A stretch of DNA of 63,136 nucleotides from Thermoleophilia bacterium (GCA_025929425.1 JAICME010000001.1:1-63136), one strand, 5' to 3'. Positions 5,180-46,026 are shown, numbered from the stretch's first letter. The notes: a model not told the origin generated them from the sequence alone. Numbers and translations are program-made.

Positions 5180-6287
5180 TCCGGCTGAGCCCGGCGCACG
5201 AGACGGCATAGACGGCACGTATCGCGGCTCGCTCCAGACCGCGGGCGCGAGCCGGGTCGGGCATGTCGCCCTGCAGCATCTTCGCAAGGGCGCGGAACGT
5301 GATCGGTAGCCGCGCGAGCGCGTAGGTCGTGCCCGGGAAGTGCTCGAACGCGCGCTTCGCCTGCCAGCCGGCCCGGGTCAGCGGCGTAATCCGCCGTTCC
5401 ACCGCCGCCTGGTACGGCTCGAGCGTCTCGGCGCGGCCGGCGAGCACGTCGAGCGCCGCCTCGGACACGAGCTGCGCGGAGAGGAACGCCTCGTACATCC
5501 CGTCCCCCGAGAGCGGGTCGACGAGCCCGGCGGCATCTCCGATCACGGCCGTCGTCCCACGCGCGAGCCGTGTGGCGGTCAGCCGCATCGGCAGCCGGTA
5601 GCCGCGGGTGTCCTGCGCCGCGGCCGGGTCGATGCCGTAGGCCTCGCACATCCGCTGCAGCTCGGCGCGAAGCTTCGGCCCCTCCTCCCCGTTCCCGCCG
5701 ACGCCGACGTTGATGTGGTCGCCCTTCGGAAAGATCCAGCCGTAGCCACCACGGATGACGGCGATCTCGAGCACCATCGCTCCCGCGTAGCGGGCTTCGT
5801 ACGGGTAGTTCGCCTCGAGCGCGACGCCGTGCTCGACCTGCTCGGCGAGGCCGAGCTGTTTCGCGGACGCGCCGTTGCAGCCGTCGGCGCCGATCACGAT
5901 CCGCGCATCGAGCTCCCGTGCGTCGGCCGTCTCCCCCTCTCGCACCTCCGCCCCGGCCTCGGCCGCCTTGTGGAGGAGGAAATGGTCGAGCCGCTTCCGC
6001 TGGGTCATGTACGCGAGAGGCGCATGCGCCCGGCGGGTGAAGCGGTGCCGGTAGCGAAGCCCACACTCGAGCCGGTGGGCGACGTCCTCGACCACGGGCT
6101 CGATCGAGAACGGCAGCAACCGCGCAGCGCGACCGGTCACGCCGCCGCCGCACGGCTTGTCGCGCGGGAACCTCGCCTTGTCTATGAGGAGCACGCTCGC
6201 GCCCGCGGTCGCCAGCCGATACGCGGCCGTCGAACCCGCGGGCCCACCGCCGACGATTGCAACGTCGTAGCTCGTCACGACCCCCAA
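5145..6287 (-). CDS. Geranylgeranyl reductase family FAD-dependent oxidoreductase
   Basis: The N-terminus YDVAIVGGGPAGSTAAYRLATAGASVLLIDKARFPRDKPCGGGV is typical of this family. The 3' end overlaps pilC convergently by 35 nt. Confidence 0.8.
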   Translation of the reverse strand: MGVVTSYDVAIVGGGPAGSTAAYRLATAGASVLLIDKARFPRDKPCGGGVTGRAARLLPFSIEPVVEDVAHRLECGLRYRHRFTRRAHAPLAYMTQRKRLDHFLLHKAAEAGAEVREGETADARELDARIVIGADGCNGASAKQLGLAEQVEHGVALEANYPYEARYAGAMVLEIAVIRGGYGWIFPKGDHINVGVGGNGEEGPKLRAELQRMCEAYGIDPAAAQDTRGYRLPMRLTATRLARGTTAVIGDAAGLVDPLSGDGMYEAFLSAQLVSEAALDVLAGRAETLEPYQAAVERRITPLTRAGWQAKRAFEHFPGTTYALARLPITFRALAKMLQGDMPDPARARGLERAAIRAVYAVSCAGLSRISRSYRSAASS

Positions 6288-6309
6288 AGCTACAATGGCG
6301 CCCCTCGTC

Positions 6310-6391
6310 GGGGGTGTGCCCGAGCGGCCAAAGGGAACGGGCTGTAAACCCGTCGGCTCAGCCTACGGAGGTTCGAATCCTCCCGCCCCCA
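6310..6391 (+). tRNA. tRNA-Tyr (anticodon GUA), class II with long variable arm, no encoded CCA
   Basis: Hand-folded. Acceptor GGGGGTG/CGCCCCC (one G-U). D-arm CCCG-AGCGGCCAAA-GGGA. Anticodon stem ACGGG/CCCGT with loop CTGTAAA. Long variable arm. T-arm GGAGG-TTCGAAT-CCTCC. Closely parallels E. coli tyrT. Confidence 0.9.
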
Positions 6392-6404
6392 CTCACTCAC
6401 TCAC

Positions 6405-7133
6405 TCACAGCGGGGCGCTTTGGAGGATGTTCACCGCCCTCGCCACAACCATCACGGCGAGGGCGAGGCTGATCGCCGACTCGATGAGCATCAGCATCTT
6501 CGCCCAGCGGCTCAGCGGCATCGCATCCGTGGGACTGAACGCCGTCGCATTCGTGAACGAGACGTAGAGGTAGTCGAGAAACTGAGGCTGCCAGCCCATT
6601 TCCGCGAACTGCGGCTCCGTTTGCTGAGGGAAGAGAAAGTCGCGCTCCGTGTGGGTGCGCGTCGGGCGTGTGATCGGCCCGCCGGCATCGAGCTGCCAGT
6701 ACCAGAGCGCGAAGAGAAGGACGTTCACGACCCACATGTGGACCGCGGCTCTGAGCAGCGTCGAAGCGGTCGCCTGCGCGCCGTTCACGAGTAGGTGGAT
6801 GAGGAGGATGATCGATGCCGAGTTCGCGGCGCTGACGATCGCGATCGACGCCAGGACGAGGCGGCGGCGGGTCACGCGCAGGACCTCCGGACGCCGCTCG
6901 AGAGCTCGCGCGAACGGCCCGCTCGGGCGGATGATGCCGAGCGCGACCAGGACGAGGACGGTGAGTGCCGGGACGACCCAGCGGACGACGCCGAAGGCTC
7001 CCCCACCCGAGCTCACGATGAAGCGCGAAGGGAGGTCGGCGTAGAGCCCGGCCGCCGCGACTAGCGCCGCTGCAGGCCAGAGCGGCGACTCGCCGAGCTC
7101 ATCGCTCGGCGCGAGCGCGCGGCGCACGTCCAC
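6405..7133 (-). CDS. Integral membrane protein (tentatively DUF1345-like)
   Basis: 242 aa with about 5-6 hydrophobic helices. The C-terminal string LYVSFTNATAFSPTDAMPLSRWAKMLMLIESAISLAL recalls DUF1345. The family call is unverified. Confidence 0.6.
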   Translation of the reverse strand: MDVRRALAPSDELGESPLWPAAALVAAAGLYADLPSRFIVSSGGGAFGVVRWVVPALTVLVLVALGIIRPSGPFARALERRPEVLRVTRRRLVLASIAIVSAANSASIILLIHLLVNGAQATASTLLRAAVHMWVVNVLLFALWYWQLDAGGPITRPTRTHTERDFLFPQQTEPQFAEMGWQPQFLDYLYVSFTNATAFSPTDAMPLSRWAKMLMLIESAISLALAVMVVARAVNILQSAPL

Positions 7134-7198
7134 CCGTGTGAGGCTACGCGGGGCGTCGGCGGGAACCGCCCGCGAACGGGGCTACAATCGGCCTTCCA

Positions 7199-7271
7199 GC
7201 CCTCTTAGCTCAGTTGGTAGAGCACCTCCATGGTAAGGAGGGGGTCGACGGTTCGAGTCCGTCAGAGGGCT
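7199..7271 (+). tRNA. tRNA-Thr (anticodon GGU)
   Basis: Hand-folded. Acceptor GCCCTCT/AGAGGGC. D-arm GCTC-AGTTGGTA-GAGC. Anticodon stem CCTCC/GGAGG with loop ATGGTAA. T-arm GACGG-TTCGAGT-CCGTC. Discriminator T. Confidence 0.92.
7230..7271 (+). repeat. attL-like copy of a 42-bp direct repeat (3' half of tRNA-Thr)
   Basis: ATGGTAAGGAGGGGGTCGACGGTTCGAGTCCGTCAGAGGGCT is identical to 18362-18403. A further ACCTC matches one mismatch upstream in both copies. Confidence 0.9.
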
Positions 7272-7332
7272 TTGCTGATTTGCAGGGACTTCGGCTTAGT
7301 AACCGGCTGGCACTCGAACCAAGATCCCATGT

Positions 7333-7351
7333 GAGGGAACACTGAGGGAAC
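7333..7351 (+). repeat. 19-bp motif GAGGGAACACTGAGGGAAC (internal GAGGGAAC x2), left-arm copy
   Basis: Identical to 18223-18241. Lies 62 nt inside the island from the tRNA end. Confidence 0.85.
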
Positions 7352-7589
7352 TCGCGGCGTTCTGATTCGGCAGAGAACCGAGGGGCGCGTTGACCTACGT
7401 GAACCGGCCGCAGGAGGGTTCGAGGTCAGCTGTGCCTAGCTCAACCTGCAGCGAAGATTCGCCGAGCCGGTGCGATAGACGCGTGGGCGCCGTCGCTATC
7501 GGCACGAGTCCAACTAGACCCGTCCCGGCCTCGGGAAGGTGGTCGCGGCCGGCACCTTCAGGAGCACACTTGCCGATGCAGCTGCGTTG

Positions 7590-7967
7590 TCACGAGCCCA
7601 CTAACCAGAGGAGCACGTTCTCCCACTCACTGAAGGCGTCGGGTCCGGTTGTATCCCACTCGTCGGGAAGCTCCGCCTCCTGGAGTCCTCGATGGAAACC
7701 GCGCAGTGTCCACTCTGTGACCATCCAGACCACGACGCGGACCGGGACCGAGTACGTCTTTCCCTTCTGGAGTTCCGCAAGGAGGCGCAAGAAGACCCGC
7801 TGCGCCGCCTCGTCGCCGGCCTCGCGTGTTCCGAGCCGGAAGAAGCAGCGATCGCGCACCGGCGTGAAGTAGCCGGCGAGCAGCAGCTTGTGCTCCCCCT
7901 CATGTAGTAGCCGCTGATCCTCAGCGTCGCGAGCATCGTGCATCGACGACATAGTCCTCGAGGACAC
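7590..7967 (-). CDS. Sigma-70/ECF region-2-like protein lacking region 4 (truncated sigma or stand-alone sigma2 domain)
   Basis: 125 aa. AGDEAAQRVFLRLLAELQKGKTY..PVRVVVWMVTEWTLRGFHR matches the sigma region 2.1-2.4 pattern. No HTH region 4 follows. Confidence 0.5.
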   Translation of the reverse strand: MSSRTMSSMHDARDAEDQRLLHEGEHKLLLAGYFTPVRDRCFFRLGTREAGDEAAQRVFLRLLAELQKGKTYSVPVRVVVWMVTEWTLRGFHRGLQEAELPDEWDTTGPDAFSEWENVLLWLVGS

Positions 7968-8047
7968 GGCTCGATCTTACGACGACCCGATTGGAAGTAA
8001 GAGAACGCGCTCGACTCGGGGACTCCTTGGAAATGAAAGGAGCCCAG

Positions 8048-8977
8048 ATGATCGAGAACAGCATCCAGCTCGGCGATCCGGTCGAGCACCGCGGCATCGT
8101 GATCGCGCCCCTCTTTCCCCGGCAGGATTCCATCGCCGAGTTCGTGACACTCGAAGAAGCGCTCCCACTCGGCTTTCGCATCACCGAGATCGACGCAGCG
8201 GGCTCCGTCCCCGAGCTCATAGCTTCCAATCCACTTGATTCGCCGGTTCTCCTGTACGACGGCGAAGAGCTGCTTGGGGCGAAGCAAAACCGAATACTCA
8301 ACGTCACGGTGCTCGTGGATGCGAAGAGCGAGACCCGAGTCCCAGTTTCGTGCGTCGAGCAGGGCCGCTGGCATGCCCAGAGCGCCACGTTCAGTGCGAC
8401 CAAACACACCGCATATCCGGATCTTCGCCGCCGCAAGGCAGAGCGCCTGAGCGCCTCGCCGATGTCGCCAGGCGTCGCCCAATCGGCAGTCTGGGAGGAG
8501 GTCGCCGCGAAGGCTGGCCGCCATGGTGTCCACTCGCCAACTGGGGCGCATGCCGACATCTATCGGAATCGTGCAGAGGAACTATCGCGCCTGCGGCGAG
8601 CATTCCCGCTCGTGCCCGGCCAGTCCGGTGCTGTGCTCGTACTGGGGGACGACCAGCTCTGCCTCGACTATTTGTCGCGACCCGCAGCCTTCGCCCGCCT
8701 CTACCCGAAGCTGCTCGACGGCTACCTCCTCGACGCACTAGATCGCCAAGGGAGGACAGCTTGCCCCGATCGGCTGACTGAGTTCATAGGCGCCGTCTCC
8801 GGTGCCAACCGGCACGACTCATCCTCGGTCGGGCTCGGTAAGGACCTTCGCCTAGCTGGCGATGACGTGGTCGGCTCAGGCCTCGCGCTCAACGAGGAGC
8901 TGCTTCAGCTATCCGCATTCACACGCGATGCTCACCGCCCGGTGACGCGCATCGGGCCTCCGAGCCGCCGCCATTGA
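8048..8977 (+). CDS. Conserved uncharacterised protein (recalled as DUF6569-like family; unverified)
   Basis: Start chosen at ATG 8048, 5 nt after GGAG; the ORF is open from 7991. The strings SVPELIASNPLDSPVLLYDGEELLGAKQNRILNVTVLV...TRVPVSCVEQGRW and SGAVLVLGDDQLCLDYLSRPAAFARLYPKLLDGYLLDAL match a widespread bacterial family of unknown function. Confidence 0.65.
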   Translation: MIENSIQLGDPVEHRGIVIAPLFPRQDSIAEFVTLEEALPLGFRITEIDAAGSVPELIASNPLDSPVLLYDGEELLGAKQNRILNVTVLVDAKSETRVPVSCVEQGRWHAQSATFSATKHTAYPDLRRRKAERLSASPMSPGVAQSAVWEEVAAKAGRHGVHSPTGAHADIYRNRAEELSRLRRAFPLVPGQSGAVLVLGDDQLCLDYLSRPAAFARLYPKLLDGYLLDALDRQGRTACPDRLTEFIGAVSGANRHDSSSVGLGKDLRLAGDDVVGSGLALNEELLQLSAFTRDAHRPVTRIGPPSRRH

Positions 8978-9031
8978 GGTCGAACGCATTGAGGACTGAC
9001 ACCTCTCGTTGGGCGGGCCGTCTGGCCCTCG

Positions 9032-9616
9032 TCAGATTCCCCAAGCGGAGTCGTCTTCCGTTGCGTCGGAGGACCCCACCAGCTCAAACTGACGCAGATC
9101 GAAGCCGAAAGAGTGCCGGGCGTTCCCACGATCATCGAGCAATCGGTTGAGGTAGTCGTGACCGCGGACAGACCCGACCTCGATCGAGTGCCGAAGAGCA
9201 GGGAATGACGCGCGCCATACACCATGGATCCGGTCGACTTTATAGCTAGCTCCGCCGATGTCCCTGCGGGTTTCTTGCCAGTCGATCCAGAAGTAGATGT
9301 CCAGAGACGGGTAGTGCTCGCAGTAGCGCTCATAGTCCTTCCGGTTGAAGGTGACTGCGTACCGGGGATCAATCCCAAAGCGCTCACGTGCTTTGAAAAA
9401 CGGCGTCCGTTGGCACTTCAGATCGGCGAGATGCCCTTCGACAAGGAGGTCGGGCGCATAGGGATCCTGCGCCTTCGCGGGATTAAGCACGGCCTGGAAT
9501 CCGAGCGCCGGGAGGACACGTTGGACAAAGGTCCACTCCTTCTCGCGTCCTGCCTCGACCCAATAGCGCTTGTCTTGAGGCGAGACGCCCATCTCGCTCA
9601 CCCGTATCGGCGGCAC
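9032..9616 (-). CDS. PD-(D/E)xK nuclease-fold-like hypothetical protein
   Basis: 194 aa. The ordered motif is E(KEW)...APD-LLVEGHLA-DLK (PD...D-x-K), with the spacing expected of restriction-endonuclease-like cores. No adjacent methyltransferase. Confidence 0.5.
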   Translation of the reverse strand: MPPIRVSEMGVSPQDKRYWVEAGREKEWTFVQRVLPALGFQAVLNPAKAQDPYAPDLLVEGHLADLKCQRTPFFKARERFGIDPRYAVTFNRKDYERYCEHYPSLDIYFWIDWQETRRDIGGASYKVDRIHGVWRASFPALRHSIEVGSVRGHDYLNRLLDDRGNARHSFGFDLRQFELVGSSDATEDDSAWGI

Positions 9617-9907
9617 AGCCGAAATGGGTTAGGCGCCCGTGGACGAAACCCTCGTCCGCGTAGGTGCCGCCGTCTCACTCGCCGCAGGCCTACTTGCGCG
9701 AGAATCGCCTCGTGAACGGCGAGCTGATCGGTGATCGGGAGAAGCGGCGATCCCGATACGCGACGTTCTGGGCGTGTGGTTGGGTCGAAGCGGCTCGAGG
9801 ATGAACTTCATGGACTCGCGTAGCTATATCGCCGTCACTGACGAAGCCGCTTGCCTCGGCGAAGGTGGCAGTTTCCCTAATACTCGAACAACGTCCCAGC
9901 AGCCCTG

Positions 9908-10759
9908 ATGCCTCTCCGCCGCCCACAATCACAAGCGCCTGGAGAAGCCGTAGGGCCCCCGATCCCGTGGCCCCGCTTGCTCGTCGCTGCCCTTGGCCTT
10001 GCGTTCCTCGCCTACGGCTGCCTTCTTGCATGGAAGGCATCGTCGGCAGATCTTGTCCTCGGGGTTGGGGCGGTACTCTTGCTCCTAGCTTTTCTGGTTC
10101 CGGCCGACTGGCGGAAATTGACAGTCGGACTTCCAGGCGGTGGATCGCTCGAGGTCGAACGGGCAGAAGCTGCGCAGGAGGCCCTCCGGAGCCTCCCACA
10201 CGAGTTGCAGCAAGAGATCGTCCAGGCCGAAGCCCTACCCGAACTCGAAGCTCCAGCAGAGGCCGTGGCCAACGAAGGCGGCGATGGAGACGGGGTGGCG
10301 GCCGGACAGCCCGAGCCAGCGCCCGCGCCGCCTGCTGAACCTGCCGAGTCGCCCGCGGAACGACTTGCGCGGTTCTTGATCACCCAAGATGCGTTCGCCA
10401 CACACGAAACGGCGACGCGATGGCTTCAGTTGAGGCTCAAGCGCAGGGTGGATTTGGCCTCCTCGCCGACGCCGGTCACCTGCGCGGTGCGCAAGGCCGG
10501 CGGCGGTTGGGCTGTCGGGGTGCCCCGCCTTACTGGGGCGGGTGATCCCCCCAGGCTCTTCGGGACGACAACCGTCGCTCGAGCAGGGACATGGCTCGAG
10601 TATCAGGCCGTCTTCCCGGACTTCTTCATGGAAGCCGGCGCTGACGTCGAGGTGGAGTTCCCTCCTGGCGAGTATGTCGTTTACTGGGGCACGCCGACTT
10701 CGACCGGCGGGGTGCACCTGCTCGCCACCGACCGCTTCGGTTGGCCGCCGGGGGCCTAG
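9908..10759 (+). CDS. Hypothetical membrane-anchored protein (2 TM, acidic Pro/Glu/Ala linker, about 130-aa C-terminal domain)
   Basis: 283 aa. TM helices are LLVAALGLAFLAYGCLLAW and VLGVGAVLLLLAFLV. The linker is EALPELEAPAEAVANEGGDGDG...PAPAPPAEPAESPAE. No family recognised. Confidence 0.5.
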   Translation: MPLRRPQSQAPGEAVGPPIPWPRLLVAALGLAFLAYGCLLAWKASSADLVLGVGAVLLLLAFLVPADWRKLTVGLPGGGSLEVERAEAAQEALRSLPHELQQEIVQAEALPELEAPAEAVANEGGDGDGVAAGQPEPAPAPPAEPAESPAERLARFLITQDAFATHETATRWLQLRLKRRVDLASSPTPVTCAVRKAGGGWAVGVPRLTGAGDPPRLFGTTTVARAGTWLEYQAVFPDFFMEAGADVEVEFPPGEYVVYWGTPTSTGGVHLLATDRFGWPPGA

Positions 10760-11003
10760 GTCATCCGCGAGGTTGCTCGGCTCGAACCAGTGAACCCCAG
10801 CTTCCGACACTGGCCAACCCAGCTCAGGCGTTTCGCGCTGGCGAGTAGTTGAGCTGAAAGGCCGCGAGGGCTCAAGTGCTACTGCGGATACGCCGGCGGT
10901 ACGGCCCAGGGTCGCGCCTCGTGCAGCCCTGCTTTGAGGAATCCTTAGCCAACCCGCTGAGTCTTCAGCTAGTCCGCCTCCCCTCAATGCTAGTCGGGCT
11001 CCC

Positions 11004-13148
11004 TTGCACCGGCCTTCCGACCCCGTCGAGTGGCAATCACGGCCCGGGTCGGCATATCCTCGTTCTGTGGCGATCGACGCCTCGGAGCTGCGACACGGCC
11101 GCGTTCGCGGGCGCTACTTTCGCGAGAACTTCGCGCAGGCGGGAATCGATCTCACGCAGATCATCCCCGAGCTCGTGACCAACGCTGACGCTGCAATAGC
11201 CGCGGCAGGACGCGAGCGCGGCCGGATCCACCTGCGAATCGGACCTGCGGATCGGGAATTCCAGCAGGCGTGGAAGGCTTCCCTCCGTAAGCTCCGTCTA
11301 CCGGCACTGCGCAGCTGGCGCTACGAGCTCGTCTGTTCCGATGACGGCGAAGGCGTCGACGCCGACGCTGTGGATCAGCGTCTCGGCGCACTCGGAGTCG
11401 TCCCGGAAAGCGAAGGTCAACGCGGTCTCTTCGGCCGCGGTCTGCGCGACGTCTGGCTCGCCCAAGGCGGCGGGCGCATCCAGGGCGTGCGCGGCGAGTG
11501 TGCCGTGGAGTCATGGTTCTTGCCTGCTGCCGGCGACGAACCGTACGTCTACACGCACGTCCTCGACGCTTCCGTCACACCCGCGATCCGTCACGAGCTC
11601 GGCATCCCACGCGAGGGGACACGAGTGACGGTGCCGCTGGCCGACGGGCGGCTCCCGCCCAACGCCCGCCTGCGCAGGCTGGTCTCCGACCTCGTGCAAC
11701 TGCGACCGATCCTCGAGGACGAGACCCGCGAGCTGCTGCTCGAACTGCCGGAAGAACCGCTGCAACTCATCCGCTACGGGCCGCCGGAGCCGGACCCGGA
11801 GCGGCCGCTCCTCTTAGATGAAGAGGTCGAGCTTCAGCGTGGCGTGACGGCGCGAATCCTCGTTCGCCGCGCCGCACAGCCAATACCACTCAACCCCGCC
11901 CGCGCCGCCCGCCGCGGCGGACTCGTCGTGCTATCAGGGCGCGCCGCGCACGAAACGACGCTCGCCGGGTTCGAAGCCCGTCCCGGCGCTCGACACCTGT
12001 ACGGCGAGGTTCGCTGCGAAGCGATCGAGCAGCTGCAGCGCGAGGCGCTCGAGACCCCACGACCGCAGGTCGTCGTCCGCGTCGACCGCAGCGGCCTCAA
12101 CGACGCCCATCCGCTCGTGCGCCGGCTGTACGCGCAGCTCGAGCGGATTCTGCGCCCGATCGTCGACGCAGAAGAACGGCGAGCCGGCGCTCGTTTAGTT
12201 CGCGCCGGCAGAGAGACCGCCGCCCGGGACGCGGTCGGGCTGCGCGCGCTCAACGACGCGCTCCGCACCGCCTTCGACGCCCCCGGGCGAGCCGGTTTTG
12301 CGCGGCGAGGCAGACCCACGGAGCAGCCGCCGCTCGAGGAGCGGGAGGAGCGGGAGGAGCGGGAGATCGTCCCACCGCCCTCTGCACCGCGCTCGTCTGC
12401 GGTCGTCGACGCCGCGATTCGCTTCAAGCAGTCGCCAGTACGCCTCCACCCGGGCGAGCAGCGGACCGTCTCGCTCCTCTTCGACCCGATGCGCGTCCCG
12501 GCTGGTACGCCAATCGACGTCGCCACGGACCCCGGCCTCTCGCTTTCGCTCTGGCGCAATGCCGTACCGCCACCGGTGTCAGGCGGATGGTCCCGTGTCA
12601 GCGGCAAGGTTCGGGCGCTCGTCTCCGCCGAACCCGGCTCGCAGCTGAGCGCCTTCGCCGAGGCTGGCGGCCATGACGCCGAGCTCGTCGTCGTTGTTGT
12701 CCGTCACCACGGGAGCGGCTGGGTGCGCGAGATCGCGCGCAAGGACGAGGATTCGCACGTCGAGGCCGAGTTCGAACCCGAGACGGGCATCGTCACGGTT
12801 TACGAAGGACGGCGCGAGTTCAAAGCCCTCGAGCGCGCTGCACGGCAGGCCGGCTTAGCACGCTCGCGCGTCCGCGAGTACGTCCCATACCGGATGCTCG
12901 AGGTCGAGGTCGCCGCCAACGCCCTCTACTGGTGGGCCGCAGAACGGATCCTGGAGCGGCGTCTTCCGGGCGAGCGACCAGCCGACCCGGCTGAGTTCGC
13001 CGCCGTCGTGCGCATGGAGGCCCAGATGCTCCGCCACCGGTTCCACGACAAGTTGATGAAGGCTTTCCTGGGGCCTGAAGTCTTCGACGGAACGGTCGTC
13101 GTTGCGCAACAGCCGACGACGGCGAGCGAGCAGCTCCGCCTCGGTTGA
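11004..13148 (+). CDS. GHKL-superfamily ATPase (HATPase_c_3/MORC-like N-terminal domain) with about 500-aa uncharacterised C-terminal region
   Basis: The three Bergerat-fold motifs occur in order: ELVTNADAA (ExxxNxxD), CSDDGEGV (DxGxG) and RGLFGRGLRDVW (GxxGxG). The start is ambiguous: TTG 11004 or in-frame GTG 11067. Confidence 0.7.
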   Translation: MHRPSDPVEWQSRPGSAYPRSVAIDASELRHGRVRGRYFRENFAQAGIDLTQIIPELVTNADAAIAAAGRERGRIHLRIGPADREFQQAWKASLRKLRLPALRSWRYELVCSDDGEGVDADAVDQRLGALGVVPESEGQRGLFGRGLRDVWLAQGGGRIQGVRGECAVESWFLPAAGDEPYVYTHVLDASVTPAIRHELGIPREGTRVTVPLADGRLPPNARLRRLVSDLVQLRPILEDETRELLLELPEEPLQLIRYGPPEPDPERPLLLDEEVELQRGVTARILVRRAAQPIPLNPARAARRGGLVVLSGRAAHETTLAGFEARPGARHLYGEVRCEAIEQLQREALETPRPQVVVRVDRSGLNDAHPLVRRLYAQLERILRPIVDAEERRAGARLVRAGRETAARDAVGLRALNDALRTAFDAPGRAGFARRGRPTEQPPLEEREEREEREIVPPPSAPRSSAVVDAAIRFKQSPVRLHPGEQRTVSLLFDPMRVPAGTPIDVATDPGLSLSLWRNAVPPPVSGGWSRVSGKVRALVSAEPGSQLSAFAEAGGHDAELVVVVVRHHGSGWVREIARKDEDSHVEAEFEPETGIVTVYEGRREFKALERAARQAGLARSRVREYVPYRMLEVEVAANALYWWAAERILERRLPGERPADPAEFAAVVRMEAQMLRHRFHDKLMKAFLGPEVFDGTVVVAQQPTTASEQLRLG
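12336..12365 (+). repeat. In-frame 9-nt tandem repeat (GAGGAGCGG x3 + GAG) encoding EEREEREERE inside the GHKL gene
   Basis: Read directly from the sequence at 12336-12365. Confidence 0.9.
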
Positions 13149-13191
13149 CGAGGTCGAGGGGCAGTTCGAGCAGATCGCGCACTCCTACGCA

Positions 13192-13223
13192 CTGCCGGTA
13201 ACCAGACAGCCTGCGACCGGCAG
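13192..13223. terminator. Possible bidirectional hairpin between convergent GHKL and membrane-protein genes
   Basis: CTGCCGGT - 16 nt - ACCGGCAG. An 8-bp perfect stem with a long loop and no U-tract. Confidence 0.3.
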
Positions 13224-13226
13224 CTG

Positions 13227-14120
13227 TTAGCTCGTCGCACCCGTGGATGGGGTATCACCAAATCCTGCCCATCTACGGAGATCGGATAGCTGCACGGTCT
13301 CACTCGGAAGCCATCGCTGGTGGAGCGGGAGCTTAATCGTCGACCGGAGGCCATCAACCAGGACGTCCTGCATCGCCTGGAGCGTGTTTGCGCGGGCACG
13401 CCAGAGCACGAGGGCAGCTCCGAAGCCGAGCACAGACCATGCGAGGCCGGCAGCGAGCGCATCTACCCATCCACTCGGTATGGCATCCGCATGCACCGCG
13501 GCGTTATATGTGAATGCGACCAAGGTCGCCGTTAAGACTGCGTACCGCGATCCTCCGAGCGCGTGATAGGTCTCTGCTCGGCCCCCATATTCTCCCCGAA
13601 GGATCTCACTGTCGTCCTTATCCACGGCGTAGAGCATCAACCAGCGCACTGCCCGCCAGTTGGTCCGTCGCGCCAAGCGGTATGCGCGACGACCTTCTCG
13701 GGTGTTTTCCACTAGTTCGAATCGCCCCCGCGGCCCAACCTTCCAGATGCGTTTATCTGAGTTGAAAATCGCGCGTTCAGAGAGGTCTACCGTCAAACCT
13801 CGTTTGTCGACCACCGCGAGATGCTCGGGATCGAGCCGGGTCAAAACATTTCGCCCTCGATCGAGGGGGACAGGAAACCACGGAGACCAGGTCGCCATTC
13901 CGTCCCAGAGGAGGTAGTAGATCTGATTCATCAAGAATCCGAGTGGTACGCCGAGTGCGATGAGCAGCACTGCGATCCCCGAATCCAGTTGATGACCGAC
14001 AACGGCGCCCGCCACCTCACGCTTCGTGATCAGCGCGAGCATGAACTCGTCGAGGACCAACACCATGATCAGCACAGCGCCCGGGATGCTCCAGCGGATC
14101 AGTTGCCGCGAGGTGTCCAT
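13227..14120 (-). CDS. Hypothetical multi-pass membrane protein with central soluble domain
   Basis: 297 aa. N-terminal TMs are IPGAVLIMVLVLDEFMLALI and GIAVLLIALGVPLGFLM. C-terminal TMs are YAVLTATLVAFTY and ALAAGLAWSVLGFGAALVLW. It lies in the most AT-rich part of the island. Confidence 0.6.
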   Translation of the reverse strand: MDTSRQLIRWSIPGAVLIMVLVLDEFMLALITKREVAGAVVGHQLDSGIAVLLIALGVPLGFLMNQIYYLLWDGMATWSPWFPVPLDRGRNVLTRLDPEHLAVVDKRGLTVDLSERAIFNSDKRIWKVGPRGRFELVENTREGRRAYRLARRTNWRAVRWLMLYAVDKDDSEILRGEYGGRAETYHALGGSRYAVLTATLVAFTYNAAVHADAIPSGWVDALAAGLAWSVLGFGAALVLWRARANTLQAMQDVLVDGLRSTIKLPLHQRWLPSETVQLSDLRRWAGFGDTPSTGATS

Positions 14121-14186
14121 TCGCGCTGAACCGCTTTAGAGGACTCGACCGTTGAGCCCGGCCGACGCAAGGAGCGCGCGCGTCAT

Positions 14187-14423
14187 CTAGCCCGGCGGTG
14201 GGAACGGGTCATGGGCGGGAGGCACGGTGTCGCGCTTGCGGATCTGGCCACCGCGACTGTGCACAAGGAGCTCGCCGCCCCCGTCGCCGCGCAGGATTTG
14301 GCGCGCGCGATCGACGGCTCGCTCTTGCGTAGGGAGGATCGCACTCGCCCGCTTCGCGTGCGGCGCGACGACCTTCCACTGGTTCCCGTCCCGCACGACA
14401 TGCCGCTGGTTCTGCTTGTTCAT
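14187..14423 (-). CDS. DUF2188 domain protein
   Basis: 78 aa. HVVRDGNQWKVV..AKRASAILPTQERAVDRARQI....GGELLVHSRGGQIRKRDT follows the DUF2188 pattern as I recall it. Confidence 0.65.
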   Translation of the reverse strand: MNKQNQRHVVRDGNQWKVVAPHAKRASAILPTQERAVDRARQILRGDGGGELLVHSRGGQIRKRDTVPPAHDPFPPPG

Positions 14424-14543
14424 GCCACCTCCTAGAGTTGGAATTCTGATTGTAGCATGTTCGGATCATCATATCCACCTACAGTTCGTCGTCTCACTGT
14501 GCTACGATCTGACCATCCGAAACGCCGCAGGAGGTGAGATCGC

Positions 14544-14867
14544 TTGGAGAAGAGTCTTGAGAAGAGGTTGAGCGGCACGTTGCGCGATCGCGGTCAGATC
14601 ACGATCCCCAAGGAGATTCGGGAGGAGGCGCAGCTCGAGGAAGGCGCAGAGGTTGATTTCGAGGTTCGAGAACCCGGCGAAGTAGTGATCCGGCGCAAGA
14701 TCTCCTTTGACACCCTCGAGCTCGACGACGAGTTCGTCCATTCCGTGATCTCGTCGACGACTCAGGGATACGAGACCCTGCGCGCTGACGACACGGCGTG
14801 GGACTCGGAGCTCGAGGAGCGTGCTGTGCTCGAAGGGTCGCTCGGCGACGGGCTTTCCGAGGACTGA
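14544..14867 (+). CDS. mazE: AbrB/MazE/SpoVT-family antitoxin
   Basis: TTG start 8 nt after AGGAGG. It has a swapped-hairpin motif (RGQITIPKEIREEAQLEEGAEVDFEV) and an acidic C-terminal tail. The stop overlaps the mazF ATG. Confidence 0.8.
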   Translation: MEKSLEKRLSGTLRDRGQITIPKEIREEAQLEEGAEVDFEVREPGEVVIRRKISFDTLELDDEFVHSVISSTTQGYETLRADDTAWDSELEERAVLEGSLGDGLSED

Positions 14868-15244
14868 TGAGCGCACCGCATTGGGCAGAGGTCTGGGACG
14901 TTGACTTCGGCAATCCAGCCGGTCACGAGCAGGGCCGACAGCGGCCGGCGGTCGTCGTAAGCGCCGACTGGTTCAACGACACACGGGCGGAGTTGCACAT
15001 CGTCGTTCCAATCAGCGGCACCCTGCGCGGCAACATCGGCACGCACTATCGAATTGACGCGCCGTCCGGTGGCCTCGACGTTGACAGCGAGGCAATGTGC
15101 GAGCACCTCCGCTCCGTCTCGGCTGAGCGGTTCGTCCGCAAGCGTGGAGTGCTTGATCGGGCGCAGATGGACGAGCTGACAAAGCGGGTCAAGCTTTTGA
15201 TCTTGCAGGTGGCGCCGCCACGGCGGCGCGAAAGGGAAGGCTAG
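14867..15244 (+). CDS. mazF: MazF/PemK-family type II toxin (mRNA interferase)
   Basis: ATG 14867 overlaps the mazE TGA. The pattern is WDVDFGNPAGHEQGRQRPAVVVS...HIVVPISGT....THYRI.....GLDVDSEAMCEHLRSVSAERF. Confidence 0.85.
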   Translation: MSAPHWAEVWDVDFGNPAGHEQGRQRPAVVVSADWFNDTRAELHIVVPISGTLRGNIGTHYRIDAPSGGLDVDSEAMCEHLRSVSAERFVRKRGVLDRAQMDELTKRVKLLILQVAPPRRREREG

Positions 15245-15252
15245 GAATAAGC

Positions 15253-15489
15253 GTGCACATCTTCATCAACAGGCGAAAGATCGATGTGGCCGGTGGGATC
15301 ATGACTGGCGAGCAGATCTTGGTCGCCGGCGAGTACGGGCCTGACTACAACCTCTATCTACTCAAGGGCGAGGGTGACCCAAGCGGCGGTACGCCTGTTG
15401 GGCGTGAGGAGAACCTCGAGGTCAAGAACGGAATGCATTTCAGAGCAATCCCAGGGAACGCGAATTTTGGCAACCGCGGTCAGCGATAA
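15253..15489 (+). CDS. Beta-grasp ubiquitin-like protein, single 'multiubiquitin'-type domain
   Basis: GTG start 8 nt after the mazF stop. The 78-aa sequence IFINRRKIDVAGGIMTGEQILVAGEYGPDYNLYLLKG...PVGREENLEVKNGMHFRAIPGNANFG fits the bacterial Multiubiquitin family pattern. It ends ...FGNRGQR, with no terminal GG. Confidence 0.7.
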   Translation: MHIFINRRKIDVAGGIMTGEQILVAGEYGPDYNLYLLKGEGDPSGGTPVGREENLEVKNGMHFRAIPGNANFGNRGQR

Positions 15490-15862
15490 TCCGCTCCTCG
15501 CCGAGGACCTTGGGCGCGTAGCTGAGGCTGGCTACGACACTGAATTGCTCCTTGCCGGCGACCAGGTCGGCGTCGTCGTGCGCGACGTGCCACTGCCAGA
15601 GGGCCGGTGGTCACAGGAGTCGACCGATGTAATGCTGATGACCACCGTCCTCTATCCGCAATCGGCGATGGACATGTTTTGGACGCCGCCTGATCTCCGC
15701 CTCGCTTCGGGCGACGAGCCGACGGCTTCAAACCTCGAGGTGCACTTCGAACGCCCGTGGCGCCGCTTCAGCTGGCATCGAAATTCCGAGTGGCGTCCGG
15801 GTCGCGACGACCTCCTTTCGCACTTTGAGTTCGCCCTGGCTCGTCTCAACGATGGCAGGTGA
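15467..15862 (+). CDS. E2/UBC-fold-like protein (Prok-E2_E-like), no cysteine
   Basis: The start is uncertain: TTG 15467 (23-nt overlap with the Ubl gene) or GTG 15374. The string VVVRDVPLPEGRW...DVMLMTTVLYPQSAMDMFWTPPDLRL is analogous to the E2 YP..PP segment. No HPN motif and no Cys anywhere in the 131 aa. Confidence 0.6.
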   Translation: MATAVSDNPLLAEDLGRVAEAGYDTELLLAGDQVGVVVRDVPLPEGRWSQESTDVMLMTTVLYPQSAMDMFWTPPDLRLASGDEPTASNLEVHFERPWRRFSWHRNSEWRPGRDDLLSHFEFALARLNDGR

Positions 15863-17178
15863 CTTACCTGGCAGTCAGCGAGCGTTCGGCTGAGGAGGTC
15901 TCTTCAAGGCTGCTTGCGGCCGCGCCGGCAGAGTCAGGTGTGTTCGTTCTCCTCAATCGGGTGGAGCGAGGCAGCGGCGCGCGGCTCGCTGTCGGATCTC
16001 CGATCTGGGACGTCGAGTTGGCACAGCAGAGAGCCGGACGAGTCGAACCAAGCGGACGGATGATCTCTGCTGCAGTGTCTGCGGCCAATCGCGAGGGCTG
16101 CGGTCTCGCCTTCATTCACACACACCCGGGTGATCGCCGCCCGCCTCATCTGTCCTCCCTTGACCACGAGACGACTATCCGACTCGGCGCCGCCTTCGAT
16201 GAACTTGTCGATGGCCCATTTGCAAGTCTGGTTGTTAGTCCCGGCGGCTGGGGAGGTGCGCTCTACGAACACGGATCCCTTCTCCCACTCGACGGCTTAG
16301 CGCTGGTTGGCCGGCGGCTTCGGCTATTCCGAGTGGGGAAGGCGCCTAAAGGAGTCGGCGATGAGACCGACAGTCGTCAGCGTCGGCTCCTCGGCGAGGA
16401 TGGAAATCGGCTTCTTCGCTCACTTCGAGTTGGGGTGGTAGGAGTCGGCGGGACCGGCTCGCCAATCGCGGAAATTCTGGCGCGGATTGGAGTAGCCGAA
16501 TTGCTGCTCATTGACCCCGACAAGCTCGAGCCGTCCAATGTGCGTCGGGTCTTCTCGGTAGGGCGAGCCGAAGGGCAAGGAGGCGAATCGAAGGTTGGCG
16601 CGGTAGCCCGCGGACTCGAGGGACTAGACCTCGGTACGCGAGTCACTGCTGTGGAGGCCGACGTCCGCGAACGCGAGATTCAGGGCCAGCTTCTTGAGTG
16701 CGACGTCGTCTACGGCGCGACTGACAACCACGCGAGCCGGTCGATGCTGACCGAGCTATCGGCCCGCGGTCACTTACCACTGATCGATGTCGGTGTTCGC
16801 GCGGGCGTACGAGAGACCGGCGAGCTCGACGCGCTCTATGTCGAGCGGCGACTGCAGATCCCTGATGGACCCTGCCTTTGGTGTTGGGGCGTCCTCGATG
16901 CTGAGCGCGTGCGGCTTGAGCTGATGCCAGCGTTCGAACGGGAGGCCCTTGCCGCAGAAGGCTACGTCGCCGGAATCGACGCGGCGCCCGAGCCAACCAT
17001 CGCCCCTTTGACGGTGACGGCCGCGGGACTCGCCACCACCACCCTCCTCGGCCTTCTCGGCGGAGGCTTGGAGGTGGGCCCGCTTCGGGCAGGCTTCGAG
17101 TCGCTAAGGGTCGAGTCGATCGCCTACGCAGACGAGCCCGATCCTGACTGCATCTGCCGACGCTGGCGCCCCGCGTAG
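15859..17178 (+). CDS. JAB/JAMM metallopeptidase domain fused to ThiF/MoeB-type E1 adenylyltransferase
   Basis: GTGA overlap with the E2-like gene. JAMM elements are AESGVFVLL, then FIHTHPGDRRPPHLSSLD (HxH...SxxD). E1 elements are VGVVGVGGTGSPIAEILARIGVAELLLIDPDKLEPSNVRRV and YGATDNHASRS. The Cys pairs CLWC and CIC look like a Zn site. Confidence 0.85.
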   Translation: MTYLAVSERSAEEVSSRLLAAAPAESGVFVLLNRVERGSGARLAVGSPIWDVELAQQRAGRVEPSGRMISAAVSAANREGCGLAFIHTHPGDRRPPHLSSLDHETTIRLGAAFDELVDGPFASLVVSPGGWGGALYEHGSLLPLDGLALVGRRLRLFRVGKAPKGVGDETDSRQRRLLGEDGNRLLRSLRVGVVGVGGTGSPIAEILARIGVAELLLIDPDKLEPSNVRRVFSVGRAEGQGGESKVGAVARGLEGLDLGTRVTAVEADVREREIQGQLLECDVVYGATDNHASRSMLTELSARGHLPLIDVGVRAGVRETGELDALYVERRLQIPDGPCLWCWGVLDAERVRLELMPAFEREALAAEGYVAGIDAAPEPTIAPLTVTAAGLATTTLLGLLGGGLEVGPLRAGFESLRVESIAYADEPDPDCICRRWRPA

Positions 17179-17449
17179 AGGCGATGACCTGTCGGCACCC
17201 CTTCCCGGTCCCAGGAGAACACCCGTGTGCGCCGAACCGGTGGTTTAGGCTTGGCCCGAACCTGCCGAAAACCGGAGTGACAGTGAACAAGCGGGCAGCA
17301 AGACGGAAGGCATTGGAGGAGGCGGCGGCCGCACGCAAGCACGTCGTGCAACACGGCCAGATCGGTTTTAACTACCGCCCCACTCCACCGAGCGGTCCCG
17401 CGCCGCACTCCGAGGACGCGGCAAACCGCCGCACGCCTCGTCGCCGCGG

Positions 17450-17890
17450 CTAGCGCGGGTCGTTTCGATTCGTCAGGGGTATGCCTTCGAGGCCCGAGCT
17501 GCGCACGCAAATCCGCGTCGAAGCATGCGGAGCGCGATCGATGTCGACGCGCAACATCATGTCGAGGTCACCGGCCACATGTGCCGAGAGCGCAAACGTG
17601 TCGACTCGCAGGGTCGGGAGACTGAAGTCATCGTCGTAGTCCGGGATGACGTGCGGGAAGAGTGCAATCGCGTGTTCTTGATCTTCCTCGGCGAGAGCCG
17701 CAATTACCTCGACCTCATGAACGCCACAGTCGACGTCGTCGTAGCGCACCTCGACGATACCGCCCGCCTCGATCAAATAGGGGTAGCTGTCGACGATGAA
17801 GATTCCGTCGTGTTTCCAGCCGATATCGATCTCGTTCGTCTGGAGGTCGACCTTCGGGACCTCTTTGGTGAGGAGAACGCTGGCGTCCAT
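17450..17890 (-). CDS. Hypothetical acidic protein
   Basis: 146 aa, rich in D/E, with no recognisable family. Convergent to the E1 gene. AT-richer codon usage, like the rest of the island. Confidence 0.5.
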   Translation of the reverse strand: MDASVLLTKEVPKVDLQTNEIDIGWKHDGIFIVDSYPYLIEAGGIVEVRYDDVDCGVHEVEVIAALAEEDQEHAIALFPHVIPDYDDDFSLPTLRVDTFALSAHVAGDLDMMLRVDIDRAPHASTRICVRSSGLEGIPLTNRNDPR

Positions 17891-18020
17891 CAGCAGTAAC
17901 CCCTACCTCTATCTCGCACGGCCTTTAGGCCGCTCTCGGGTGTCGGTGTGATCGCCGGCCGGTGGGCGCCGACAGGCGAGGTGCTTGTCGCTGTGATGGA
18001 TCGTAAAAGGTGAGGCGGAC

Positions 18021-18050
18021 GGAGCCGTCCGGCGCCCACCGGACGGCTCC
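18021..18050. other. Perfect 12-bp-stem hairpin / palindrome in the non-coding right arm of the island
   Basis: GGAGCCGTCCGG-CGCCCA-CCGGACGGCTCC. Confidence 0.85.
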
Positions 18051-18222
18051 CGAGATCGAGCCGCGACTAGCACTCCAGCAACCGGAGCTCTTCCATTGAA
18101 GCGAGTCGTTCGGACGGTGCGAGCCACTCAGGGGCCGCCGAACGCGCTCGACGCACGTCTGCGAAACCCGGGGCGGCACCGAGCAGCACTCAACCTGCTG
18201 CGCGTCGCGGAGCCTAAGACCC

Positions 18223-18241
18223 GAGGGAACACTGAGGGAAC
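18223..18241 (+). repeat. 19-bp motif GAGGGAACACTGAGGGAAC, right-arm copy
   Basis: Identical to 7333-7351. Lies 121 nt inside the island from the attR-like repeat. Confidence 0.85.
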
Positions 18242-18361
18242 ACCAACGCGGGCACGCGCGGGTAAGCGGGGTCACTCGTCTTCGGACAATTCCTTCTTCT
18301 TGCGCGGCTTTCGTGCCCGCGACTTCCCGGCCTTGCCCTCGGTTCCCTCCCCGGAACCTCG

Positions 18362-18403
18362 ATGGTAAGGAGGGGGTCGACGGTTCGAGTCCGTCAGAGG
18401 GCT
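18362..18403 (+). repeat. attR-like copy of the 42-bp direct repeat (partial tRNA-Thr 3' half, not a functional tRNA)
   Basis: Identical to 7230-7271. No acceptor 5' strand or D-arm lies upstream. Confidence 0.9.
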
Positions 18404-18475
18404 CTGCAGAATCCGCTGCGGCCGAGACTGAGCCTCAGGCGCTAGGCAGAGTGCTTCGACCTGGACGGCGCGTAC

Positions 18476-41496: not shown

Positions 41497-42587
41497 GGCC
41501 GGTCACGCGCTGCGAGGTACGTCTGGTTGAAGGCGTACGGCAGCTCGTCCTTCTCCGCGTAGACCCCGTGGGTGAACGCGCGCGAGCGGACGCCCTGCTG
41601 CACGCGCTCGCAGACGACGTAGTCCTGGTGCGCGACGAGCTCGGAGAACTCGATCGTCTCGCGCGGGTCGAAGCCCGGGTCGGCGATCGCCTCGGGCCGG
41701 AACAGGTAGTCGGTGATGATCGTCGTCCGCTCGGGCCCCCGCGGCTGCATCCGCGTCGCGATCACGACGGTTCCGGTCAGGTCGATGAACATGTTCGGGA
41801 AGATGCTCGCGCCGTGCATCGCGTTCGCCTGCTGCTCGGTCAGGCCCGGCATGACCGGGATCGTCGTCGTGCCGGTGGCCGTGTAGCCGGCGCCTTCCAT
41901 CGACACGCCCCAGTCGTCGCGGCCCTCCTCGAACACGAGCCCCTTGCGGAAGGTCGGCGCGACTGCAACGAGCTCCGGATGGACGGTCGGGCAGTGCAGG
42001 CACTCGTTGTAGTTCTCGATCAGGATCTTCCAGTTCGCCGCGAGCTCGGTCACGGTCTGCTCCACCGTGCGCAGCTCGTCCATCCGCCATGGCTCGTACT
42101 GGAGCGGCCTGTCGTTCTGCCGCTCGAACGACGTACGCACGTCCGCTTTCGGCTCGCCGAGGTGAACGAAGACGAACCCCTGCCAGACGTCCACGTGAAC
42201 CGGCCAGAGCGAAAGCGCTGAACGGTCGACCTCGTCGGGATCGACGAGGGGCGTCCCGATCAGGTCGCCTTCGTACGAGTACGTCCAGGCGTGGTACGGG
42301 CACTTGATCGCACCCTTCGCGTGGCCTCGTGTCTCGGGGTCGCAGATGCGGCTTCCGCGATGCCGGCAGACGTTGTAGAAGCCGCGCAGCTCGCCGTCCT
42401 TGCCGCGGACGACGAGGATGCTCTCCCCCACCACGTCCACGGTGAGGAAGTCGCCCGGCTCAGGCGCGCGATCGGCGCGTCCGGCATAGAACCACTCGCC
42501 GAAGAAGATCTTCTCCCGCTCCAGCTCGAAGATCTCGGGTGCGTGGTAATCGCGCCCCGGAAGAGTCGGCCGACCCGCGCTCGACAT
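41493..42587 (-). CDS. Rieske [2Fe-2S] non-heme-iron oxygenase alpha subunit (GbcA/choline-monooxygenase-like)
   Basis: The Rieske motif is CRHRGSRIC...CPYHAWTY. The N-terminus is LPGRDYHAPEIFELEREKIFFGEWF. The catalytic-domain His residues are NECLHCPTVHPE. Confidence 0.85.
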   Translation of the reverse strand: MSSAGRPTLPGRDYHAPEIFELEREKIFFGEWFYAGRADRAPEPGDFLTVDVVGESILVVRGKDGELRGFYNVCRHRGSRICDPETRGHAKGAIKCPYHAWTYSYEGDLIGTPLVDPDEVDRSALSLWPVHVDVWQGFVFVHLGEPKADVRTSFERQNDRPLQYEPWRMDELRTVEQTVTELAANWKILIENYNECLHCPTVHPELVAVAPTFRKGLVFEEGRDDWGVSMEGAGYTATGTTTIPVMPGLTEQQANAMHGASIFPNMFIDLTGTVVIATRMQPRGPERTTIITDYLFRPEAIADPGFDPRETIEFSELVAHQDYVVCERVQQGVRSRAFTHGVYAEKDELPYAFNQTYLAARDRP

Positions 42588-42827
42588 GCCAGTATGTAAC
42601 CACAGCCACCCTTATATCGGCGTCCGAAGCTTGACACATCGTGCGCTGTCGGTTTGCATTGTGCGAACATCCCGACCCCAGGAGGGACCCATGCATCCGC
42701 GTGAACGGCCGACGAACAGGCGTCAGTTCCTAATCCGGGCGGGAGGAGCCGAGGGGACGCTCTCAGACGCCGACGGGCTGCGAAGCGTGTGCGGGGGAAT
42801 GCCCCGGTCGCAACCAGGAGGGGAACG

Positions 42828-44117: not shown

Positions 44118-44141
44118 GTGGACCGACCGTACGAGGCGTAG

Positions 44142-45988: not shown

Positions 45989-46026
45989 GGCTGCCGGTGC
46001 AACTTCAACCGCAGAGGACGTGACGC

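Follow-up and report, generated by a model that had tools for sequence, protein, structure and literature searches.

A probable att-flanked, integrase-less island at the tRNA-Thr(GGU) gene of a soil Gaiellaceae bacterium

How does a segment of DNA that is framed like an integrated mobile element come to lie at a tRNA gene without an integrase, and can such a segment still move? This question is raised by a 63,136-nucleotide stretch of DNA (GCA_025929425.1, JAICME010000001.1:1-63136; hereafter the window, with positions counted from its first letter) from a soil Gaiellaceae bacterium (Actinomycetota, Thermoleophilia), in which the 11.1 kb at 7273-18361 lie between an intact tRNA-Thr(GGU) gene and a partial copy of it. 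We conclude that this segment is, in all likelihood, site-specifically integrated and integrase-less. It is probably best described as an att-flanked island resembling a cis-mobilizable element (CIME), an element that has lost its integration and transfer genes and kept intact attL and attR sites; the class was defined for Streptococcus and is catalogued in ICEberg 2.0 (PMC6323972). From comparison with related loci, we hold with moderate confidence that the integrase was lost by local deletion, and it is possible, though on balance doubtful, that a helper can still mobilise the island.

The limits of the island are set by a direct repeat. Two 55-nt copies, identical at 52 of 55 positions, form the longest direct repeat in 5-22 kb of the window (Table 1), and the repeat search agrees with a preliminary description of this DNA, in which the last 42 nt of the tRNA-Thr gene were said to recur exactly at the far end. 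This exact 42-mer covers tRNA positions 33 to 74 and so begins with the first base of the anticodon loop. Upstream of it, one mismatch is followed by five more matching bases; the five further matches described past the mismatch on the other side exist but are not consecutive, the order there being a mismatch, three matches, a mismatch and two matches. The chance expectation for an exact shared 42-mer in a 63-kb window of the same composition is 2.5e-14, and no third or other partial copy of the repeat is present in the window. ARAGORN finds two tRNAs in the window, tRNA-Thr(GGU) and a tRNA-Tyr at 6310-6392, and between 6 and 19 kb Rfam finds only these two. Neither program detects a second tRNA near 18.4 kb; the distal copy, which had already been recognised as lacking the 5' half, is not called as a tRNA.

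The DNA between the repeats is also set apart by its composition. Its G+C content is 64.7%, against 68.1% on the left side and 69.8% on the right, and no other 11.1-kb stretch of the window is as low in G+C. The median G+C content at third codon positions (GC3) is 0.735 for 13 island genes and 0.874 for 32 backbone genes (Mann-Whitney p=1.9e-6), and tetranucleotide distance from the backbone peaks in the island. The drop in G+C had been proposed from three hand counts (28/60, 31/60 and 43/60), which prove exact on recount, and all three measures of composition uphold it. Within the island, the gene for a 693-aa protein at 11-13 kb is nearer to the backbone composition than the rest (GC3 0.80). 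A second low-GC, tetranucleotide-deviant stretch lies at 42500-47500, has a GC3 of 0.91-0.93 and encodes an ABC transporter operon (a solute-binding protein, two permeases and an ATPase with a TOBE domain); its membrane proteins account for its odd composition, and it does not look like an island.

The chromosomal setting is conserved on the left of the island. The order T2SS-F, GGR (geranylgeranyl-reductase-like), tRNA-Tyr, DUF1345, tRNA-Thr is kept in dozens of Gaiellaceae metagenome-assembled genomes (MAGs), and the window genes to the right of tRNA-Thr have no match in related MAGs at this site. The window is assigned to Gaiellaceae by exact protein matches and by a scan limited to one genome per species. 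We compared 80 relatives, obtained from a scan with the GGR protein; in none are the island genes found at tRNA-Thr, where other elements sit, and the site is hypervariable. The same island, with proteins 100% identical, is present on a 19.8-kb contig of GCA_025966345.1, and many public runs from soil contain it with a nucleotide identity of 99.9-100%. The neighbouring tRNA-Tyr, which in the window is 22 nt from the GGR gene (6287-6310), is 1.6-1.9 kb from it in several relatives (L008, L012, L016, L023, L025 and L030), with an ABC-ATPase-like gene between; since this spacing differs among relatives, the neighbouring tRNA is also a variable site.

Next to both repeat cores lie putative arm-type sites built from the octamer GAGGGAAC. 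Six copies are found in the window, against 2.3 expected from shuffles, and five of the six are at the island ends, none more than about 150 bp from one of the two cores. A cluster of five in these 300 bp has a Poisson probability of ~1e-12, and all five are perfect. They form a tandem pair just past the tRNA, a second tandem pair in the distal arm, and an inverted copy 12 nt before the exact attR core. By analogy, two tandem pairs with an inverted copy would be the layout expected of a tyrosine-integrase attP that integration has split into P arm, core and P' arm. By sequence, both att sites are complete, with cores matching at 42/42 positions and arm-type pairs on both inner flanks. The P arm additionally contains a perfect 10-nt inverted repeat (CGCGGGCACG at 18247-18256 and CGTGCCCGCG at 18312-18321, 55 nt apart), which may be a hairpin or another site for protein binding. 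Several short-read contigs that contain the right end of the island (L169, L174 and L177) stop at 18327-18328, which is 34 nt before the core and not inside the 42-nt repeat; these ends suggest a further sequence branch, from other P-arm copies or variants, in those samples.

The same arms recur in other DNA. Conserved blocks relate the ~140-nt P arm (18222-18361) to its homolog in a metagenome contig, L094, which keeps the 10-nt inverted repeat and in which P arm, core and then the GAGGGAAC P' pair follow one another amid unrelated genes. Seventeen metagenome contigs carry the same attL, in which the GAGGGAAC pair is spaced from the tRNA-Thr core as it is here. In eight of them the pair comes after a partial core and no tRNA, and the genes beyond the pair differ in each of the 17. 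A viral scan with the attL pattern gave no matches; with the bare arm pair it gave 30, about the number estimated for random matches, and in four of these the pair abuts an integrase, two of the four being unrelated low-GC tmRNA elements. In the low-GC viral contigs L110 (10890-10936) and L139 (4882-4928), the GAGGGAAC tandem motif precedes the start of a P4-like integrase gene, in L139 between the tmRNA gene and the integrase, which reflects either convergence or an old arm-binding specificity.

Other integrated elements at the same tRNA repeat this architecture with different sequences. Partial tRNA-Thr copies, extending from position ~29-32 to 75, lie some kilobases from the full gene in L009 (4 kb), L041 (4 kb), L050 (7.9 kb), L056, L078 and L103, and L078 has two of them in tandem; all related islands have their junction at the anticodon loop. 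The geometry is the same but the motifs differ in the other element families here, each with a pair ~+60 to +100 past the attL core: GCGTCCAC (L009-type), TGGAACA, TATGGAGC, AAAGGTGAG, TGTGGTGAG and GCGGGCAC, pairs of the last being the P' motif in L040 and L071. Where distal cores were fetched (L050, L056, L078, L161 and L089), the same motif is found again ~-115 to -145 before the core; L050 has a pair there, and L078, L161 and L089 have one copy each. A Phage_integrase gene is directly beside the tRNA in L009 and L103, and relatives of that gene are present in L042 and L011; according to an iterative integrase profile, only about three of about ten delimited units at the site have a tyrosine integrase. 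As far as these loci indicate, the tRNA-Thr site is an integration hotspot for several integrase lineages in Gaiellales-like actinobacteria.

In the island itself, no gene for its own recombination was found. None of the sizeable island open reading frames (ORFs) has a Pfam match to an integrase, transposase, excisionase, relaxase or FtsK-like protein, and a six-frame Pfam search of 7273-8050 and 17150-18420 returned nothing at E<=1. NCBIfam, PADLOC and PHROGs yielded no integrase, excisionase, relaxase, type IV secretion or FtsK-like match in the island. When ten diverse tyrosine integrases were compared with the 63-kb window by tblastn, the best match had only E=0.047; a hidden Markov model (HMM) of a 67-sequence integrase family, run with all filters off (--max), had no match at the island ends, and the iterative profile found no tyrosine integrase in the island. 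The statement that no recombinase, excisionase, transposase or conjugation gene is present thus agrees with Pfam, tblastn, profile and PHROGs searches. No cognate integrase was found in the 63-kb window, an absence that outside the island is backed only by tblastn and profile searches aimed at tyrosine integrases. Two candidates were rejected: the gene at 46027-47199, which resembled genes near tRNA-Tyr in relatives, is an ABC ATPase, and the minus-strand peptide EFPQCSL, considered as an integrase remnant, is the translation of the arm pair. Phage structural, replication and lysis genes are likewise absent from the island, where PHROGs matched two families of unknown function only, and megablast of the island against phage and plasmid records gave no match.

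Where the integrase gene would have been is suggested by relatives that still possess one. The P' pair is inside the last codons of int in L009, L114, L148 and L150-152, the last three from Solirubrobacteraceae. In L009 the pair is at +62/+73, the same offsets as in the window island, inside the 3' end of the int gene. L148 is a prophage located at tRNA-Thr(GGU) beside tRNA-Tyr, with tail genes as well as genes for an HTH_17 excisionase and an integrase; a GTTCCCC/GTTCCCA pair in the 3' end of its int is ~70 nt away from the tRNA. In the high-GC viral contig L114 the GAGGGAAC pairs are exact, and it has a GCTGATTTGCAGG box that also occurs at window 7274-7286. The integrase family of L114 (P0051) has 93 homologs, one of them from a Solirubrobacteraceae MAG. 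The likeness between the elements of this family and the island is one of att architecture only, with no genes in common: these elements carry int and xis, and L148 and L150-152 also carry phage-like genes, whereas the island has none of these.

The corresponding position in the island, 7352-7619, is empty of recognisable genes and ends where a neighbouring sigma factor gene is broken. The 163 homologs of the ORF at 7590-7967 are mostly sigma-70/extracytoplasmic function (ECF) sigma factors of 169-170 aa with a Sigma70_r4 domain, and by tblastn it matches residues 1-108 of the L179 sigma with 92/108 identities (85%). A pairwise BLASTP against two ECF sigmas had been negative, and the identity of the truncated sigma was settled instead by the homolog search. 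The homology breaks off at 7620, ~270 bp from the P' arm pair, and the missing 3' part faces attL. Elsewhere (L179-L184) the intact sigma belongs to a module of ARPP-1, NERD, sigma, a 187-aa gene, M78 peptidase, GIY-YIG, SNF2 helicase, N6/N4 methyltransferase and ResIII helicase, which in L179 spans 6166-16510 and is adjoined by Mu-like transposition genes. The module looks like the regulatory head of a DISARM-like system. The island keeps only sigma(1-108) and ARPP-1, and at least six genes that follow the intact sigma elsewhere are absent here. A literature search on ARPP-1 returned only papers on eukaryotic ARPP-16/19. Against all fetched loci, 7352-7619 is similar only to copies of this island. 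Because the sigma is truncated, the 268 bp beside it are matchless and int overlaps the P' pair in relatives, a deletion of int and more is the most economical account; because these 268 bp show no integrase remnant, the deletion itself is something we infer.

These observations can be drawn together in the following way. A tyrosine integrase would have recombined the attP of an element with the segment of tRNA-Thr(GGU) from the anticodon loop to the 3' end, leaving the intact tRNA at attL and a copy of its 3' half at attR. A deletion with its inner edge at the sigma truncation (7620) would later have removed int beside the P' arm pair. What remained would be a CIME-like element with attL and attR and no recombination or transfer genes, incapable of excision by itself, which could move only with a cognate integrase (plus excisionase) supplied in trans, or with a helper integrating alongside it (accretion). 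The preliminary description had proposed an integrated element that lost its integrase or is mobilised in trans; the latter would be compatible with intact attL and attR. Site-specific integration and the missing integrase both stand, and the loss is backed by the arm sites, the overlap of int with the arm pair in relatives and the sigma truncation.

The island resembles CIMEs in that att sites are kept while integration and transfer genes are gone, and in the tandem accretion visible in L161, L094, L078 and L103. It differs in its probable ancestry: classical CIMEs derive from integrative and conjugative elements (ICEs) or integrative and mobilizable elements and ride conjugative helpers, whereas the integrase-bearing relatives of the island are prophage- or satellite-like, with tail and capsid genes, Prim-Pol and an HTH_17 excisionase, and no conjugation link was seen among them. 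By analogy with these relatives, helpers are likely to be phage- or satellite-type integrases, not ICEs.

Mycobacteriophage L5, which integrates at tRNA-Gly, exemplifies tRNA-targeting tyrosine-integrase elements with paired arm-type sites. As in L5-type elements, the core of the island runs from the anticodon loop to the tRNA 3' end, arm pairs one helical turn apart flank it on both sides, and the host is an actinobacterium; unlike them, the island lacks integrase and excisionase genes and has another arm motif (GAGGGAAC) and another target (tRNA-Thr GGU). The island is a well-known kind of decayed mobile island and reveals no new mechanism.

Close strains show that this locus is not uniform. 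One contig (L089, from SRR33878307) matches the window at 99.6% identity across the attR core and ~1.65 kb of the flank to its right, and the P arm to the left of this core is of another kind, that of L009/TATGGAGC. Another (L161, from ERZ27311409) carries the left end of the island at 97.6% identity overall and 100% over core and P' arm. In place of the tRNA 5' half, the island in L161 is preceded by a 2.1-kb integrase-less unit (BBE oxidase, PadR), which is itself preceded by a decayed core and, as we read its C-terminal peptide, the end of an IS256-like gene. Such units stand in tandem in L161, L094, L078 and L103, which is at most indirect evidence for mobilisation by a helper. On these sequences the island is one module of arrays whose make-up varies among close strains. 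The earlier view of a fixed island is not borne out: 'fixed' is unsupported because L089, with another element at the attR core, and L161, with its tandem unit, differ at this junction from near-identical strains.

Several results weigh against our account. The assignment of arm sites draws on position, repetition and analogy, and the sites are accordingly called putative here. None of the 17 metagenome contigs with this attL has an adjacent integrase, and no integrase-bearing element with exact GAGGGAAC arms was found at tRNA-Thr; L114 is the only high-GC contig with a GAGGGAAC-armed integrase, and it is without a recognisable tRNA-Thr core. The 268 bp at the expected integrase position gave no six-frame Pfam match and no match to the integrase HMM (--max). 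In the rest of the window, no integrase is among the best 25 of 50 Pfam families, which is weak evidence. No empty tRNA-Thr site was found among the 80 relatives, none of which has the right flank of the window beside tRNA-Thr, and no excised circle was recovered. That no clean empty site was found follows from the right flank not being shared by relatives; the contigs retrieved through exact matches to the DUF1345, R191 and NmrA proteins were mostly Logan contigs of 1-3 kb, with ends inside the repeat.

The strongest competitor holds that the island is a dead remnant, a fossil integration that is fixed and immobile and whose arm repeats are too young to have decayed. It departs from our preferred account of a CIME-like island only on the matter of mobility through a helper, and we would give it slightly less than an even chance. 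The absence of int, xis and transfer genes fits it, as does a partly degraded cargo (the truncated sigma, and a Bub-like operon without BubE, described below), and an island identity of 99.9-100% across many samples is what vertical inheritance in one species would produce. However, the attR core is identical to the tRNA at 42 of 42 positions with five perfect arm octamers beside it, near-identical strains (L089 and L161) differ at this very junction, and relatives (L078, L094 and L103) contain tandem arrays of such units.

The GAGGGAAC pair past the tRNA might instead belong natively to the chromosome of the clade, for example as a regulatory site, in which case the true limits of the island would be elsewhere. 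The 17 metagenome contigs that have the pair at the same distance, with ordinary-looking genes beyond it and no integrase, could be read this way, and a close relative (L025) has a degenerate version of the pair. Nevertheless, we consider it improbable: the octamer pair recurs inside attR, in the 140-nt arm common to L094; a partial core and no tRNA precedes the pair in 8/17 contigs; every contig has different genes after it; and the motif pairs of other lineages at the same offset fall inside integrase genes. That the repeat is a local partial duplication of the tRNA or a chance match, with native genes in between, is hardly credible. It has in its favor only that partial tRNA duplications exist in genomes, and the chance expectation, the foreign composition, the lack of synteny in relatives, the anticodon-loop junction in every related island and the presence of arm sites all speak against it. 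An att-flanked, integrase-less, CIME-like island remains the reading we prefer, with the features listed in Table 1.

Table 1. Positions of att components and genes of the tRNA-Thr(GGU) island in the window
Feature	Position	Strand	Description
Intact tRNA-Thr(GGU)	7198-7272	+	ARAGORN; Rfam tRNA, 67.4 bits; anticodon loop to 3' end is the attL core
attL repeat copy	7224-7278		55-nt direct repeat; exact 42 nt at 7230-7271; repeat search and base-by-base check
P' arm-type sites (putative)	7333-7351	+	GAGGGAAC twice, 11-bp spacing, 61 and 72 nt past tRNA end
DNA without assignment	7352-7619		at expected integrase position; ends at sigma truncation point
3'-truncated ECF-type sigma	7590-7967	-	region 4 missing; homology ends at 7620
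ARPP-1 domain protein	7991-8977	+	Pfam PF20208, E=2.4e-83
186-194-aa protein	9032-9616	-	no match in Pfam, PADLOC, NCBIfam, PHROGs or PDB
Protein without family match	9908-10759	+	long form with hydrophobic N-terminus
GHKL-type ATPase, 693 aa	11067-13148	+	GyrB/MutL/Hsp90-like N-terminal half and beta-sandwich
BA5345-family membrane protein	13227-14120	-	NCBIfam NF052507, 41.6 bits (cut-off 40)
DUF2188 protein	14187-14423	-	PF09954; phrog_3220
mazE; mazF	14544-14867; 14867-15244	+	Pfam MazE_antitoxin 9e-11; PemK_toxin 8e-23
Bub-like (6E.1-type) operon	15253-17178	+	Ubl 15253-15489; E2 15467-15862; JAB-E1 fusion 15859-17178
Acidic 146-aa protein	17450-17890	-	no family match; last gene before attR
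P arm (putative)	18223-18349		GAGGGAAC pair at 18223 and 18234 (+, 11-bp spacing); inverted repeat; inverted GAGGGAAC at 18342-18349 (-)
attR repeat copy	18356-18410		exact part 18362-18403; tRNA 5' half missing

The cargo between the att sites had been listed as a truncated sigma, a conserved unknown, a PD-(D/E)xK-like ORF, a GHKL ATPase, membrane proteins, DUF2188, mazEF and a Ubl/E2/E1-JAB operon. The sigma, the GHKL ATPase, a membrane protein, DUF2188, mazEF and the Ubl/E2/E1-JAB genes are all recovered, together with ARPP-1. The PD-(D/E)xK assignment, made for the ORF at 9032-9616, finds no support in any of the five collections searched.

The GHKL-type protein is the largest of these genes. 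Its Bergerat-fold motifs (E35/N39/D41, D92-G94-E95-G96 and G120-G125) are invariant in 39 homologs, and the top Foldseek matches of its structural model, a mediocre one with a predicted local distance difference test score of 57.7, are GyrB, ParE, Hsp90 and MutL, with E to 4e-8. No family model for it was found in any library. Across many Gaiellaceae MAGs the protein is 77-93% identical, a housekeeping-level conservation. Its homologs in L157 and L158 are beside IS110, or between two integrases near a Schlafen/HATPase_c_4 gene, and because of these contexts we regard the gene as travelling as a module of its own.

The mazE, mazF, Ubl, E2 and JAB-E1 genes are codirectional, with gaps of 0-8 nt or short overlaps and 8 nt from mazF to Ubl. 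The Pfam matches of the last three are Multi_ubiq (weak), Prok-E2_E and ThiF; among PDB entries, JAB-E1 matches Citrobacter BubCD (1e-16) and E2 matches BubB (6e-9), and in the alignment with BubB the E2 keeps the DMF...S-x-H residues. The operon is thus like the Citrobacter Type I Bub operon (6E.1), in that its JAB-E1 aligns with BubCD and its E2 with BubB. According to the paper on Bub, the Type I operon consists of a BubAB fusion, BubCD and BubE, and all Bub operons have BubE. In the island, by contrast, Ubl and E2 are separate overlapping ORFs in different frames, the operon directly follows mazEF, and no match to DUF6527/BubE (PF20137) was found on any ORF or in six frames of 17150-18420. 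From its gene content, it would be a variant that does without BubE and is coupled to MazEF, or else an operon in decay.

The name of defence island, which the segment had been given, is only partly borne out: mazEF and the Bub-like genes were identified through Pfam and PDB, PADLOC recognises only the E1, and does so with models of the E1-E2 type of cyclic-oligonucleotide-based antiphage signalling system (CBASS), the sigma is truncated, BubE is missing and most of the genes are unknowns. The cargo is fairly described, judging by sequence, as a mosaic: conflict-type modules that move separately and are in part degraded.

The island represents a well-delimited case, in an uncultured soil lineage (Gaiellaceae), of conflict genes parked at a tRNA hotspot after the integrase of their carrier was lost, and it makes defined att cores and arm motifs available, along with a candidate family of helper integrases. 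For annotation, it shows that this island, like most neighbouring units at the site, would escape island finders based on integrases. A broader reading, which we consider unlikely, is that the tRNA-Thr(GGU) locus in Gaiellales-like actinobacteria is an exchange platform at which integrase-less cassettes with complete arms, many of them with conflict genes as cargo, are stacked in tandem and shuffled by prophage or satellite integrases acting in trans. If that were true, about seven of about ten delimited units at the site would be hitchhikers rather than dead remnants, and selection for mobilisation in trans would explain why arm pairs have stayed perfect where int is gone.

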